Source of the DNA: Thermotogota bacterium
Lineage (GTDB): Bacteria; Thermotogota; Thermotogae; Petrotogales; Petrotogaceae
NCBI GenBank assembly: GCA_051748045.1
Contig: JBNJGY010000002.1
Location: forward strand, 55,498-119,497
DNA: 64,000 bases
Reading direction: 5' to 3'
In this document: one piece after another, positions 8,272 through 45,987 of the stretch
Position numbering within the stretch: position 1 is the first letter of the stretch
Layout of the letters: each line of letters opens with the position of its first letter
Position numbers and translations under genes: made by a program
The notes under the pieces: model-generated
Seen by the model: the letters and a program-made list of their open reading frames with translations, nothing else
Told to the model about the DNA's origin: nothing
The model's database searches: none

Positions 8272-9145
8272 TATTTTGATATTGTTATTTTTTTCAAATA
8301 TTGTTTTTTCTTATAAAATATTTTCTAATGGGTTATATTTTAAAGATTTTATAGAGAATAAAATTAAATACTCTAGAGAAATAAAAATAGTTACCTATAG
8401 TATTGACGAAACAATAACGAAATCTCTTTTGAGCAAAAACCATCATATTATAGCAGATTCTTCAGGAGTGAAAACTAAAGACAAATTAAATATACAAAAA
8501 GTCACCGCCCCTAATACAGGGATACAACATGAAAAATTCTATATATTTGATGATGAATCTGTTATTTTTGGTACAGGAAATATGACATATAGTGGAATAA
8601 TTGGAGATAAAAATATTTTTGTTTATACTGAAGATAAAGAGATTGTTAATGTTTTTAAAAAAGAATTCTACAATTTGAGCTCAAAGAAATATAAACCTTC
8701 TTTAGAGAAAAAACTAAATAATACAGAAATTGGAGATTTTTCTTTTTATTCAACTCCCAATAATAAAATATACAAAGTTATTCAAAAAGAAATTCGAAAA
8801 GCAAAAAATAAAATAGATATATTTGCTTTTTCATTAACAGATCCATTTTTAGTTTATGAAATTGAAAAAGCAGCTTCTAAAGATATAGAAATTAATTTAT
8901 ATTTTGATGATTGGAATATTTATTATTCTGAAGCAGTCAATCATTTAAAAGGAATAAATAAAGTTAGCTATGATGATCTTCATGCAAAAATTATAATTTT
9001 AGATGAAAAAAGAATAATATTAGGAAGCTATAATTTTACATACAAAGCTAGAAATACAAATTATGAACTGTTAACGATTGTAGATAATAAAGCAATAAGT
9101 GAAATTGTAAAATCTATGTTAATAGAGGAGGAAATAATAAAATGA
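8252..9145 (+). CDS. Secreted phospholipase D/nuclease superfamily protein
   Basis: Signal peptide; two HxKxxxxD motifs (HEKFYIFD, HAKIIILD) followed by GTGN and GSYN; start uncertain. Confidence 0.8.
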   Translation: MNKLKYSILILLFFSNIVFSYKIFSNGLYFKDFIENKIKYSREIKIVTYSIDETITKSLLSKNHHIIADSSGVKTKDKLNIQKVTAPNTGIQHEKFYIFDDESVIFGTGNMTYSGIIGDKNIFVYTEDKEIVNVFKKEFYNLSSKKYKPSLEKKLNNTEIGDFSFYSTPNNKIYKVIQKEIRKAKNKIDIFAFSLTDPFLVYEIEKAASKDIEINLYFDDWNIYYSEAVNHLKGINKVSYDDLHAKIIILDEKRIILGSYNFTYKARNTNYELLTIVDNKAISEIVKSMLIEEEIIK

Positions 9146-10869
9146 AAATGAGAATTTCTTTAGCTCAGATGAATGCGAGAGTTGGGGATTACAAATACAA
9201 TTATGATAAAATAATTTATTTTATCGAAAAAGCAATAAAAGAAAATTCGGATATTGTTTTGTTTCCTGAATTAACTCTAAACGGATATCCACCTGAGGAT
9301 TTGATTTTAAAAACTCAATTTTTAAGAGAATCAAAGGAATATACAAAGAAAATAATAAATTATTCAAGAGATAAAGACATAACAATAATCTTTGGGGCTG
9401 TTGATTGGGATATTGAATCATATAATAGCGCTTATGTTGTTTATGATGGGAAGGTAATAACAGATTACAGAAAAATGTTTTTACCTAATTATTCAGTGTT
9501 TGATGAAAAAAGGTATTTTACCAACGGAAAAGATGTAGAGATTTTCCAGATAGATGATGTTAAATTAGGTGTGAATATCTGTGAAGATATATGGGTTCCT
9601 AATGGTCCTGCACTTGCTTTAGCTCAAAATGGAGTGAATGTTATATTAAATTTATCTGCATCGCCTTATCATAAAAATAAAAATATTAGCAAATTAGAAA
9701 TGCTTAAAACAAGAGCATCAGAATTATCTAGTTGGCTAATATATACAAATCATGTTGGAGGGCAAGATGAAGTAGTTTTTGATGGTGGAAGTGTTATTAT
9801 CAATCCATATGGTGAGGTAAAATTAAAAGCTCCTTTGTTTGAAGAAGGTTTATATACAGCAGATATAGATCCTTATGAGACTACTAGAGCAAATTTAAGA
9901 GAAGGAAAAAGAAAACATTATAGTCACAATAATTATACAACAAATAAAATACATAAAATGGAATATAATAAAAAAAATAATAGAAGGAAAATAGAAAAAG
10001 TTGATAATTATTGGTTTGAAGAAATAGAACAAACTTACAATGCTATAAAATTAGGGTTAACTGATTATTTACAAAAAAATAATTTTGAAAAAGTTTGTTT
10101 TGGATTAAGTGGGGGTATTGATTCTGCATTAATTGCTGCAATTGCTTCTGATGCTTTAGGAAAAGAAAATGTTTTAGGTATAATGATGCCTTCAATGTAC
10201 TCATCCAAAGGAAGTGTAAATGATTCAATTAAATTGGCCAAAAATTACGGTTTTAAAACTGTAGAAATCCCTATTAAAGATATTTTTGATAATTTTTCAT
10301 CAAACTTAAAAAATGTAATGTCTGAAATAAAAAGCTTAACACAAGAAAACATTCAAGCAAGATTAAGAGGAACTATAGTTATGAGTTTTTCGAATAATTA
10401 TGGTTATTTAGCTCTTGCAACAAGTAATAAAAGTGAATCAGCTGTGGGTTATTCTACTTTATACGGAGACATGGTTGGGGGATTTTCACCTATAAAAGAT
10501 TTATATAAAACTGAAGTATATAAAATGGCAAACTTCATAAACAAGAAAAACGGATATGATATAATTCCAAGGGAAATTATTGACAAAGCTCCATCTGCGG
10601 AATTAAAACCAGATCAAAAAGACCAAGATAGCTTGCCTGAATATGATCTTTTAGATAGAATATTGTTTAATTACATCGATAGAGAAATGTCTTTTGATGA
10701 ATTAATTGAAGATTTTGATGAACCAATAGTTAGAGAAATAATAAAAAAGGTTGATATAAATGAATTTAAAAGAAGACAGTCAGCTCCTGGAATAAAATTA
10801 ACAGAAAGATCTTTTGGTAAGGATAGAAGAATGCCTATTACAAATGGGTTTAAAATTTGGATGAGATGA
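9142..10869 (+). CDS. nadE: Glutamine-dependent NAD+ synthetase
   Basis: N-terminal nitrilase-like domain (FPEL, ICEDIW) plus SGGIDSA, ENIQAR, NKSE, PSAEL. Confidence 0.96.
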   Translation: MKMRISLAQMNARVGDYKYNYDKIIYFIEKAIKENSDIVLFPELTLNGYPPEDLILKTQFLRESKEYTKKIINYSRDKDITIIFGAVDWDIESYNSAYVVYDGKVITDYRKMFLPNYSVFDEKRYFTNGKDVEIFQIDDVKLGVNICEDIWVPNGPALALAQNGVNVILNLSASPYHKNKNISKLEMLKTRASELSSWLIYTNHVGGQDEVVFDGGSVIINPYGEVKLKAPLFEEGLYTADIDPYETTRANLREGKRKHYSHNNYTTNKIHKMEYNKKNNRRKIEKVDNYWFEEIEQTYNAIKLGLTDYLQKNNFEKVCFGLSGGIDSALIAAIASDALGKENVLGIMMPSMYSSKGSVNDSIKLAKNYGFKTVEIPIKDIFDNFSSNLKNVMSEIKSLTQENIQARLRGTIVMSFSNNYGYLALATSNKSESAVGYSTLYGDMVGGFSPIKDLYKTEVYKMANFINKKNGYDIIPREIIDKAPSAELKPDQKDQDSLPEYDLLDRILFNYIDREMSFDELIEDFDEPIVREIIKKVDINEFKRRQSAPGIKLTERSFGKDRRMPITNGFKIWMR

Positions 10870-29306: not shown

Positions 29307-29385
29307 AATAATACCTCCTTTTTAGAATTTCATCATTATTTTATCACATGACCATTAAAAAATAAATAATCAGCTAAAATAAGTT

Positions 29386-29414
29386 TTGTAAAATATAACT
29401 ATATGTAGTATAAT
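29386..29414 (+). promoter_or_regulatory. Sigma70 promoter of the udk operon
   Basis: TTGTAA-17 bp-TATAAT. Confidence 0.65.
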
Positions 29415-29447
29415 ATGTCAGAAAAAGTCAAAAAGAGGTGAAGCTTA

Positions 29448-30074
29448 TTGGTCCTCGTTGCTATAGTTGGTGGAAGTGGTTCTGGGAAGACAAGTGTTAC
29501 GAAAAATATTGTAGATCATTTTGGTGAAAGAGCTTCAATGCTTAATATGGATGATTATTATAAAGATTTACCTCCACAGGTTAATCCATATGAATTTAAT
29601 TTTGATGATCCTAAAGCCTTTGATTTTTCACTTTTGAGAGATCATTTGAAAGCATTGAAAGAAGGCAAACAAATAGAAATGCCTGTTTATAATATGGTTA
29701 CATTCAGAAGAGAAGAGGGTGTTACTAGAACGTTTAAACCAAATGATTTAATTTTGGTAGAGGGTATATTTACTCTTCATGATGATAAAATAGCTAATAT
29801 GTTTGATTTTTCGGTTTATATCGATGCCCCTTCAGATGAAAGACTCATTAGAAGGATAGAAAGAGACACAATAGAAAGAGGAAGAACTGTTGAAAGCATT
29901 TTATCTCAATATAGAAAATTTGTTGCTCCATCCTTTAAATCATTTATAGAACCCCAAAAATTCAAATGTGATATAGTTTTACCAGAAGGTGTAAATAACA
30001 TAAAAGGAATGAATATTATAAAAAATGCAATAGAAAGGATGCTTGAAACAAAATCACAGGAGGGAGATCAATGA
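29448..30074 (+). CDS. udk: Uridine kinase
   Basis: GGSGSGKT, MDDYYK, NFDDPKAFD, VEGI, RRIERD. Confidence 0.93.
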   Translation: MVLVAIVGGSGSGKTSVTKNIVDHFGERASMLNMDDYYKDLPPQVNPYEFNFDDPKAFDFSLLRDHLKALKEGKQIEMPVYNMVTFRREEGVTRTFKPNDLILVEGIFTLHDDKIANMFDFSVYIDAPSDERLIRRIERDTIERGRTVESILSQYRKFVAPSFKSFIEPQKFKCDIVLPEGVNNIKGMNIIKNAIERMLETKSQEGDQ

Positions 30075-43840: not shown

Positions 43841-44386
43841 ATGGATATGAAATTTCAAATTGTTGAAGCTTTAATTCTTTCTAAAAATAATGGAATTAGT
43901 TTGAATGAAATAATAAAAAGAACAAATTATGAAGAAGATGAAATAAAAAAAATAATCAATGAGATTCAACTACATTATATAAATGAAGAACACGGAATTG
44001 AATTAGGGAGATTTCAAAATAAATTTAGATTTGAAATAAAAACCGAAATAAAAAAACTAATTACTGCAAAACCTAAAAAAATGGAATTAACAGATACTCA
44101 ATTTGAAGTATTGACTATTTTATTTTTAAATGGAGCGTCAAGAGGAGTTGAAATAGAAAAATCAAGAGGAAAGAACTCATATTCTCAAATAAAAAAACTT
44201 AGAGAATACGGATTAGTTAAAAAAGTAAAAAGAAAAAATACTCAGAATAGCTATTTGTATGATTTATCCGATAAATTTTATGAATGGATACCTGAAACAA
44301 CTTTGAAGAAATTGGAGGAAATTAAGAATGCTAACAGTACAGAAAGCACTACAGACATTGGGGATGAGCAGAAGGAAAGCAGCTGA
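43841..44386 (+). CDS. scpB: Segregation/condensation protein B
   Basis: VEALIL, EVLTI, IEKSRG, winged-helix pattern; synteny. Confidence 0.82.
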   Translation: MDMKFQIVEALILSKNNGISLNEIIKRTNYEEDEIKKIINEIQLHYINEEHGIELGRFQNKFRFEIKTEIKKLITAKPKKMELTDTQFEVLTILFLNGASRGVEIEKSRGKNSYSQIKKLREYGLVKKVKRKNTQNSYLYDLSDKFYEWIPETTLKKLEEIKNANSTESTTDIGDEQKESS

Positions 44387-45068
44387 TTATATAAAAGATA
44401 AAGGTGTAAAAGTAAATGGAAAACTTGTAAAAGAACCTTGGTTTGAAATAGAATATGGTGATGATTTAGAATTTGATGGGCTAAAACATAAATTTGAAAA
44501 AATAAAAGAAAAAAAAGAAGATAAGGTTTATTATTTGTTGAATAAACCAAAAGAAGTTTTGTGTGCTATGGAAGATCCATTTGGGAGAAAAACAATAAAA
44601 GATATGATAAAAAATAAAATTCGAGAAAAAAATGTTTTTCATGTTGGAAGACTTGACTATAATACATCAGGGATAATATTATTGACAAATGATGGTGATT
44701 TAGCAAATTACTTGCTTCATCCAAAATACAAAGTTGAGAAAATATACGATGTATTAGTAATGGGACATCCAAAAAAAGAAGAGTTAAAACAATTAGAAAG
44801 TGGCATTGAAATAGAAGGTGGAGTTAAAACTCAACCAGCAAAAATAGAAAAAGTAAAGAAAAAAGGTAATAATCATCAAGTTGTCATTAAAATTACTGAA
44901 GGTAGAAAAAGACAAGTAAGACTTATGTTTAAAGCTTTAGGATATACTGTTCTGAACTTAAAAAGATTGGCTTTTGGCCCATGGGAAATAAAAAGAGTGC
45001 CCAAAGAAGGAGATATTGTAAAATTAGATAATTTTGAAGTAAATAAACTTTTTAAAAAATTAAAATAA
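44328..45068 (+). CDS. rluB: rRNA pseudouridine synthase (RluB/RsuA family)
   Basis: S4 domain, NKP, VGRLDYNTSG, EGRKRQVR. Confidence 0.88.
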   Translation: MLTVQKALQTLGMSRRKAADYIKDKGVKVNGKLVKEPWFEIEYGDDLEFDGLKHKFEKIKEKKEDKVYYLLNKPKEVLCAMEDPFGRKTIKDMIKNKIREKNVFHVGRLDYNTSGIILLTNDGDLANYLLHPKYKVEKIYDVLVMGHPKKEELKQLESGIEIEGGVKTQPAKIEKVKKKGNNHQVVIKITEGRKRQVRLMFKALGYTVLNLKRLAFGPWEIKRVPKEGDIVKLDNFEVNKLFKKLK

Positions 45069-45139
45069 AAAAAGGGGCGATTTTACTCGCCCCAGGTGGA
45101 TGGGCCGAAAATATTTTCATATTTTCGGGGGGATGGGTA
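45067..45139 (-). ncRNA. Candidate small regulatory RNA (~73 nt)
   Basis: GC-rich island with own promoter, 10-bp hairpin with GAAA loop, two CCCAUCC motifs and GGGGCGA/TCGCCCC-U7 terminator. Confidence 0.65.
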
Positions 45140-45144
45140 CTTTT

Positions 45145-45173
45145 ATTATAACTCACAATTATTAAATAATCAA
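45145..45173 (-). promoter_or_regulatory. Sigma70 promoter of the candidate sRNA
   Basis: TTGATT-17 bp-TATAAT. Confidence 0.7.
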
Positions 45174-45228
45174 CAATTTTTATTTAATAAAAGTTTCAAA
45201 ATAACGTTTAATGTTAAGGAGACTTAGT

Positions 45229-45987
45229 ATGTTTAAAGATGCAGAAAGAATAGTAAAAAACGCAGGAACTATACTAATTGATAATTTGAACAAAAATTAT
45301 AATACTTATTCAAAAAAAAATAAGCATGACATAGTTACAGAAATAGATATGAAAATACAAGATTATTTAAAAGAGAATTTATCAAAATTAGATTCTACCT
45401 CAGGATTTTTAGCAGAAGAAAGAGGGCTAACAGATAAGCCTAAAGAAAAAAACTATTGGGCTATAGACCCTATAGATGGAACTGTAAATTTTTCAAGAGG
45501 ATTTCCTGAAAATTGTATTTCTGTTGCTTATTTACAAGATAATATTCCTGTTTTTGGGATGATTTATTCACCTCAAATGTCTATTAGTTTTACATGTTCA
45601 AAAAATAATGGTCTTTTCATAAATGGGAAAAAACAAATACCGAAATGGTCTGAAACTATAAACGACGCGATGATTACTATAGGCGCTAATAAGAAAGAAA
45701 TGAACAAATTTATAAACGTTTTATCTGAAAAAGTCATGCGTATTAGATTAATTGGATCCGCTGCAATTATGGGAGCTTATGTAGCTTCTGGTTATGCTGA
45801 TGCCTTTATTTTTTCCAAATCAAACCCTTGGGATATAGCTGCTGCTTATAGTATGATAAAAGAAACAGGTGGAGAGGTTATTGATTTTCAAGGAAATGAT
45901 GTTGATATTTTTTCAAAAAGAATAATTTTTACCTCAAAATATATTAAAAAAGATATCTTACAATTACTAAAAAACATGGAGGAGTGA
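45229..45987 (+). CDS. suhB: Inositol monophosphatase family protein
   Basis: WAIDPIDGTVNF, PWDIAAA, GG. Confidence 0.88.
   Translation: MFKDAERIVKNAGTILIDNLNKNYNTYSKKNKHDIVTEIDMKIQDYLKENLSKLDSTSGFLAEERGLTDKPKEKNYWAIDPIDGTVNFSRGFPENCISVAYLQDNIPVFGMIYSPQMSISFTCSKNNGLFINGKKQIPKWSETINDAMITIGANKKEMNKFINVLSEKVMRIRLIGSAAIMGAYVASGYADAFIFSKSNPWDIAAAYSMIKETGGEVIDFQGNDVDIFSKRIIFTSKYIKKDILQLLKNMEE

Follow-up and report, generated by a model that had tools for sequence, protein, structure and literature searches.

The stretch analysed here (the window) comprises 64,000 nucleotides of the Thermotogota bacterium assembly GCA_051748045.1 (Petrotogales, Petrotogaceae; contig JBNJGY010000002.1, positions 55,498 to 119,497 of the forward strand). 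The spacer between its rluB-like and suhB-like genes contains a C-rich unit on the minus strand that, judged from its sequence, very probably specifies an independently transcribed, trans-acting small RNA (sRNA) of ~71 nt. The genome carrying this window RNA is designated G000; G, L and C numbers denote genomes, loci and contigs, f numbers families and g numbers genera. The convergent rluB-like pseudouridine synthase gene (44328..45068, plus strand) is the last gene of scpA-scpB-rluB. Its product scores above the TIGR00093 cut-off, and its best named match is RluB, below the cut-off of that model. The divergent gene on the other side belongs to the inositol monophosphatase family (suhB-like; 45229..45987, plus strand) and adjoins the RNA only in genus g1. 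It probably starts at 45229, downstream of AAGGAG, and not at the first ATG at 45211.

The predicted RNA (45068..45138, minus strand) was delimited by fold and conservation, with its +1 placed on an invariant A. It opens with the single-stranded 5' seed ACCCAUCCCC (45129..45138), whose predicted opening cost is ~0, followed by a hairpin with a 10-bp stem and a GAAA loop (45105..45128), a single-stranded linker holding the second CCCAUCC (CCCAUCCACCU; 45094..45104) and an intrinsic terminator with its U-tract (45067..45093; 7-bp stem region 45093-45074, then U7). Upstream on the same strand lie a -10 box, TATAAT (45145..45150), placed 17 bp after a -35-like hexamer, TTGATT (45168..45173), and the motif TTAATAA (45159..45165), 8 bp upstream of the -10. 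All the elements described in the initial annotation (TTGATT-17-TATAAT, stem, GAAA loop, two CCCAUCC copies, terminator and U7) were located where it had placed them. Its description of a non-coding unit in an AT-rich spacer also held, with a GC content of 48% compared to 18% across the remaining spacer and no open reading frame of more than ~15 codons starting with ATG, GTG or TTG on the minus strand of the unit. The minus-strand fold reached -26 kcal/mol (z-score -6.13), with 0 of 200 shuffles equally good, and no other terminator was found in the scanned 1.4 kb, for which 0.3 were expected.

Matches to the promoter pattern alone were at chance level (12 found, 7.2 expected), so that the support for a promoter comes from its conservation across 13 homologues. 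All 13 carry the -10 box, TTAATAA and an A seven bases past the -10 without change. Since transcription start sites of T. maritima map 7 bp after the -10 in the available part of the source (PMC3636130), the +1 was placed on A45138, which probably gives an RNA of ~71 nt and shortens the ~73 nt first proposed for what otherwise stands as a complete unit. The -35 fared less well than the -10, being near canonical spacing in only 4/13 homologues and unconserved in its spacing beyond two genera. TTAATAA is a possible contact for a regulator or sigma factor, and TAAY-N10-TAYAAT also occurs upstream of rluB-linked copies in family f2. Genome-wide, the TTAATAA/-10 spacing showed no enrichment, and the 12 occurrences of TTAATAA-N8-TAYAAT in G000 were without a common theme. 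A Rex or Fur box in the promoter, as judged by eye from the alignment, was suggestive in G000 alone and unconserved.

The homologues (RNA-A) were identified by BLAST of 41 relatives, by exact pattern and by a covariance model over 151 genomes of the phylum (built from 12 of the 13 carriers), each of which returned the same 13 genomes from 5 genera, all in the window's own family f1. Covariance-model scores ran from 101 to 55 bits and then fell from 54.8 to 26.3 bits. Every carrier, G000 included, holds a single copy, so the unit is not a dispersed repeat. Among 79 pattern matches in metagenomes, 23 proved to be true homologues, and the fetched stretch included rluB in 21 of these; viral contigs gave 2, 2 and 0 matches, none of them unit-like. 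One metagenomic homologue (L206) mostly lacks the terminator stem, by deletion or misassembly. In G006, a purine riboswitch (88.9 bits, L132:2831-2932) lies ~1.3 kb from RNA-A.

Conservation is highest in the -10 and in the C-rich stretch that remains unpaired. Neither the 5' C-run nor the stem base (CCGAAA/UUUCGG) varies, whereas the top of the stem, the loop, the -35 and the terminator sequence do. G000 and G017 are identical at 16/16 positions from +1 to +16 and agree at only 11/30 from -60 to -31. The second CCCAUCC is exact in 11/13 homologues, altered by one change in G014 and lost in G006. A perfect 10-bp stem capped by a GNRA loop is present in the window, but the GNRA loop recurs in only 2/13 homologues. 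Three distinct terminator stem sequences occur among the homologues, all still pairing, and in the MAFFT alignment 84% of cells pair, compared to 36-47% in slid controls. Two points limit the case for an independently transcribed, structured RNA. The six base pairs of the stem base showed no covariation among the homologues; they never vary and are therefore uninformative on structure. Moreover, the homologue L237 had contigs from 4 of the 23 listed RNA runs (two spanning the stretch, one breaking inside the unit and one without cover over 977-1168), which are uninformative as to transcription.

When G-rich target sites were sought, a second C-rich RNA, also conserved, came to light in the RNA-A carriers, G000 included. 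The initial annotation missed such sibling RNAs and the phylum-wide family to which they belong. This family is defined by the core CCCCUAUCCCCC plus a terminator, and a model built from 37 members matches 138/151 genomes at E<=1e-4 and 147/151 at E<=0.05, counts that include the training genomes; copies often number two or more per genome. Twelve core columns are invariant across the 37 diverse members. A terminator lies no more than 95 nt beyond the core in 89 of 103 occurrences examined, the remainder being mostly start regions read backwards or cut contigs. A 15-mer of the sibling RNA-B, with one mismatch permitted, is found in 124/151 genomes. Family members come in two recurrent forms: B carries three C-runs, and in K the core lies within or ahead of a hairpin. 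Many genomes hold both; an earlier division into two mutually exclusive structural types was overturned when the second type was found in type-I genomes. The scan reaching beyond the phylum covered the K form alone: an exact 20-mer gave 6 matches in a species-genome collection, all titled as Thermotogae-type metagenome-assembled genomes. A further family model (R2) contained no base pairs and was left unused.

The window RNA is likely this family's rluB-linked copy in a locally diverged form. Like the rluB-linked family copies in f2, f5 and f7, RNA-A is antisense to rluB and just behind it, in all 13 cases, with the gene on the other flank varying by genus; together, 29/29 rluB-linked copies are antisense to rluB (f1 13, f2 6, f5 2, f7 8). 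The window RNA has this position, a core near the 5' end and a terminator. The f2 copies share with RNA-A the promoter layout TAAT-N10-TATAAT, and the K copies of f9 share with the window RNA the order of core, hairpin and terminator. In two f2 genera without RNA-A, another C-rich unit occupies the same place behind rluB, and an intermediate core, AUCCCCAUCCCCC, was seen in 4 genomes of genus g9. Sequence similarity speaks against membership: the exact 12-nt core is not in the window RNA, which has the shortened core ACCC-AUCCCCCC instead; a family model built without RNA-A gave its best full-length match in the window at 9.4 bits (E 0.16), partly through the terminator; and an nhmmer family profile without RNA-A did not place the window RNA among its G000 matches at E<50. 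Because the family model matches so weakly, membership rests on position and layout.

At this position, the RNA might instead act in cis, as an antisense RNA or a convergent terminator limiting read-through from scpA-scpB-rluB into the downstream genes. Such a role would suit the antisense position kept in all linked copies, the plus strand without a U-tract after the hairpin in G000 and the direct abutment of rluB and suhB in 3 relatives lacking the RNA. An antisense RNA has, however, no need of an invariant seed, the downstream genes vary between genera, and most lineages keep family copies at sites other than rluB. Genus g9 even keeps only the terminator behind rluB, with an A-like RNA located elsewhere, and action in cis thus appears improbable.

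C-rich motifs pairing with Shine-Dalgarno (SD) sequences or G-repeat leaders are repeated in RsaE/RoxS and FsrA of the Bacillales and in RepG of Helicobacter, all of which have their own promoter and terminator. The window RNA appears to share these traits, with a predicted promoter of its own, an intrinsic terminator, no apparent coding capacity and repeated, conserved C-rich motifs modelled as unpaired. It differs from these RNAs in core, length and phylum, and neither a Rex nor a Fur box is conserved upstream (by eye). The best Rfam 15 match over the unit reached 18.3 bits, with 80 needed (E 8.6), so that neither these families nor 6C RNA, as far as they are curated there, is matched at the thresholds used; the motif in 35 further loci gave no Rfam match either. 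The proposal of an independent, trans-acting C-rich sRNA without an assignable family is consistent with this result and with the conservation in relatives, and the RNA most likely works like the C-rich SD-pairing sRNAs while standing outside any curated family.

We lean slightly towards a mode of action like that of 6C RNA, by pairing with G-rich ribosome-binding sites (RBSs). In the accessible part of its description, 6C RNA of the Actinobacteria, a short sRNA conserved at phylum level, pairs with several mRNAs through two C-rich single-stranded regions (PMC6486639). The window RNA likewise has two such regions, but at the 5' end and in the linker, whereas those of 6C RNA are hairpin loops. 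The same source describes 6C RNA as independent of RNA chaperones (PMC6486639). Hfq is, by contrast, present in Thermotogota. The two exposed C-rich stretches of the window RNA would pair with the G-rich RBSs (GGGGGGAUGG, GGAUGG) of several mRNAs and block their translation, with the hairpin serving as a spacer between two seeds; the U-tail could load the RNA on Hfq.

Targets were sought in 2104 start regions of G000 from a home-made gene caller, with 1483 coding windows for comparison. Seed 1 pairs at <=-15 kcal/mol with 105/2104 start regions and 2/1483 coding windows. Several outcomes argue against target pairing by this RNA. Shuffled seeds gave 9-131 start-region matches, 5 of 30 equalling or exceeding seed 1, and the preference for starts therefore reflects C-richness. 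The leading candidates in G000, named by eye, were radC (the top match), cheD and cheW; radC paired well in only 1/8 other carriers and was rejected, and in many cases its site runs into the end of the preceding coding sequence. Among 5 carrier genomes, exact G-rich sites had no gene in common. The start of the MATE gene, proposed at the outset as a perfectly complementary target, ranked 13/2081 with the second motif and 510/2081 with the first. The ACCU tail required for this pairing is found in only 2/13 homologues, and across 4 orthologous pairs (5 genomes) the pairing drops to -11.6, -7.3, -6.2 and -4.1 kcal/mol; this target was given up. A RocR-like competence regulon was rejected as well: measured against 631 background starts, comM ranked in the top 5% in 8/50 genomes and radC in 9/30, and dprA, comEC, comEA and comF did so in 1/19 scored (of 20). 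The same applies to a G-run near position 140 of 16S rRNA, which is present in just 2/5 genes.

The best target lead, for the sibling RNAs only, is hfq. First noticed post hoc in 5 genomes, its RBS was then tested on more, in 74 loci (L578-L582 and L587-L655; 8 unparsed) from 10/11 families, a sample of related genomes with a small control set. GGGG was kept in 65/66 genes, GGGGG in 54 and six G in 40, compared to 22.5%, 13.9% and 5.4% of 631 background starts, and hfq ranks first for an RBS G-run among 18 gene clusters with at least 8 members. When paired with the RNA of its own genome and ranked against 250 background starts, hfq is in the top 10% for 22/29 B and 6/9 K copies. The corresponding figure for RNA-A, 0/6 copies, is a further point against pairing by the window RNA itself. 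Some genomes with little or no match to the family model keep the G-run as well, so it may have another cause. Across the phylum, hfq keeps its G-run RBS although GGAGG would be favoured by the 16S tail, which ends in CACCUCCUUUCU where read; the 16S 3' end was not found in the G000 assembly, whose own anti-SD is therefore unreadable.

Alternatively, the repeated A(U/C)CCCC units could act as a sponge for a conserved protein that binds C-tracts, in the manner of the GGA repeats of CsrB. The 12 invariant core columns, the three similar C-runs of the B-type copies and the lack of a conserved mRNA target for the window RNA (MATE, radC and shared G-rich sites tested) would fit such a sponge. The units are, however, complementary to G-run RBS variants in use (GGGGG occurs at the start of 247/2108 G000 genes), the G-run of hfq is almost always kept and no candidate protein was identified. 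We therefore regard a protein sponge as unlikely, if less so than action in cis, and retain RBS pairing.

The B copies in G137 and G140 lie between PF01384 and PF01972 genes, the latter family being what we take to be DUF114. The same arrangement surrounds a putative noncoding RNA (ncRNA) of T. maritima, RTS_M_934685_934868, an intergenic 184-nt transcript with a mapped start, for which the available part of the report gives no structure, family or function (PMC3636130). Its neighbours are TM0916 (DUF114) and TM0917 (phosphate transporter); it shares the strand of TM0916 but is not part of the TM0916 transcription unit (PMC3636130). Its levels, in fragments per kilobase per million mapped reads, are given there as 243 in log phase, 689 after heat shock, 11438 in carbon-limited late exponential phase and 434 under hydrogen inhibition, a 47-fold rise under carbon limitation (PMC3636130). 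Its strand is that expected for a C-rich RNA, and the gene context suggests that it contains the family motif, the published table giving no sequence. It would correspond to the B-type sibling, not to the window RNA, and at 184 nt is about twice the length of the predicted unit. The K. olearia transcriptome was, in the accessible description, selected against RNA <200 nt (PMC5674127).

A reading without any RNA gene would assign the conservation to a DNA-level site or to a plus-strand GGAUG-containing element beside an ordinary terminator. No transcript was seen at the window unit (contigs only), and its plus strand folds too (z -3.1). The fixed -10-to-+1 spacing and the U-tract are nevertheless both on the minus strand in 13/13 homologues, and the T. 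maritima ncRNA occurs in the context of the sibling on the expected strand, so that this reading is very improbable and an sRNA gene remains by far the better account.

Hfq is encoded in 143/151 genomes, G000 included. A tentative and rather doubtful wider scheme would be one in which carbon starvation induces C-rich sRNAs of an ancient, multi-copy family. These would pair with the G-run RBS of hfq in a chaperone feedback loop, and the window RNA would be the paralogue at the ancestral rluB locus, its seed shifted to GGAUGG-type sites. Repression of its own translation by the Hfq protein is reported for E. coli, as far as the accessible text goes (PMC6348989). A narrow literature search showed no repression of hfq by a trans-pairing sRNA, and a broader one found no description of the phylum-wide C-rich family in the open-access literature, subscription journals being largely outside this coverage. 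To our knowledge, seed conservation this deep is unusual among bacterial sRNAs. The window RNA alone amounts, more modestly, to a new sRNA of five genera, and its main value lies in the family and the hfq lead uncovered through it. A nearly phylum-wide candidate sRNA family with a 12-nt invariant core, an expression clue and a testable target would be of note in a phylum described, in the part of the source available, as ncRNA-poor (PMC3636130), yet so widely equipped with Hfq.

G000 holds up to three candidate siblings. RNA-B (C22:30656-30727, plus strand; L583:2357-2428) has the full core and a terminator, scores 68 bits and is conserved throughout the remaining RNA-A genera (5 genomes examined) as well as in g8 and g9. 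RNA-C (C8 ~29385-29456, plus strand; L584:885-956; 27.8 bits) is divergent from an OmpH/Skp-like gene (named by eye), and family copies occupy this position also in g3 and g9. The third, a weak A-like unit, ACCCAUCCCCCC (C13 ~9085-9147, minus strand; L585:1180-1252; also in G001, L281), has a hairpin with a C-rich loop and a terminator, lies convergent with a peptidase-like gene, lacks a nearby -10 and folds with a z-score of only -1.7. A further weak candidate (C66 ~3735, minus strand; L586:975-1038) combines a -10, C-runs and a terminator and reaches 16.4 bits against the family model. Scanning generically for a C-run with -10 and terminator gave 11/580 sites, compared to 9/624 for G-runs, and therefore proves nothing alone.

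Upstream of other family copies, several sequence elements recur. Copies in f6 (L324-L333) and f7 (L334-L346 and L381-L386) are preceded by GAACTT/GAACC, 16 bp and GTCTAA/GTCAAA, resembling the consensus of extracytoplasmic function (sigma-E) promoters, and those in f8 and g14 by GGAAC-N17-GTWAAC. In two genera, the K copy (L056, L057, L060 and L087-L089) has an imperfect inverted repeat ~50 bp upstream of its start, at the same spacing, which is a possible activator site. Separately, an inverted repeat of a C-run and a G-run at ~1190-1215 of L157 (G131) precedes a heavy-metal ATPase-like gene and resembles a CsoR operator.
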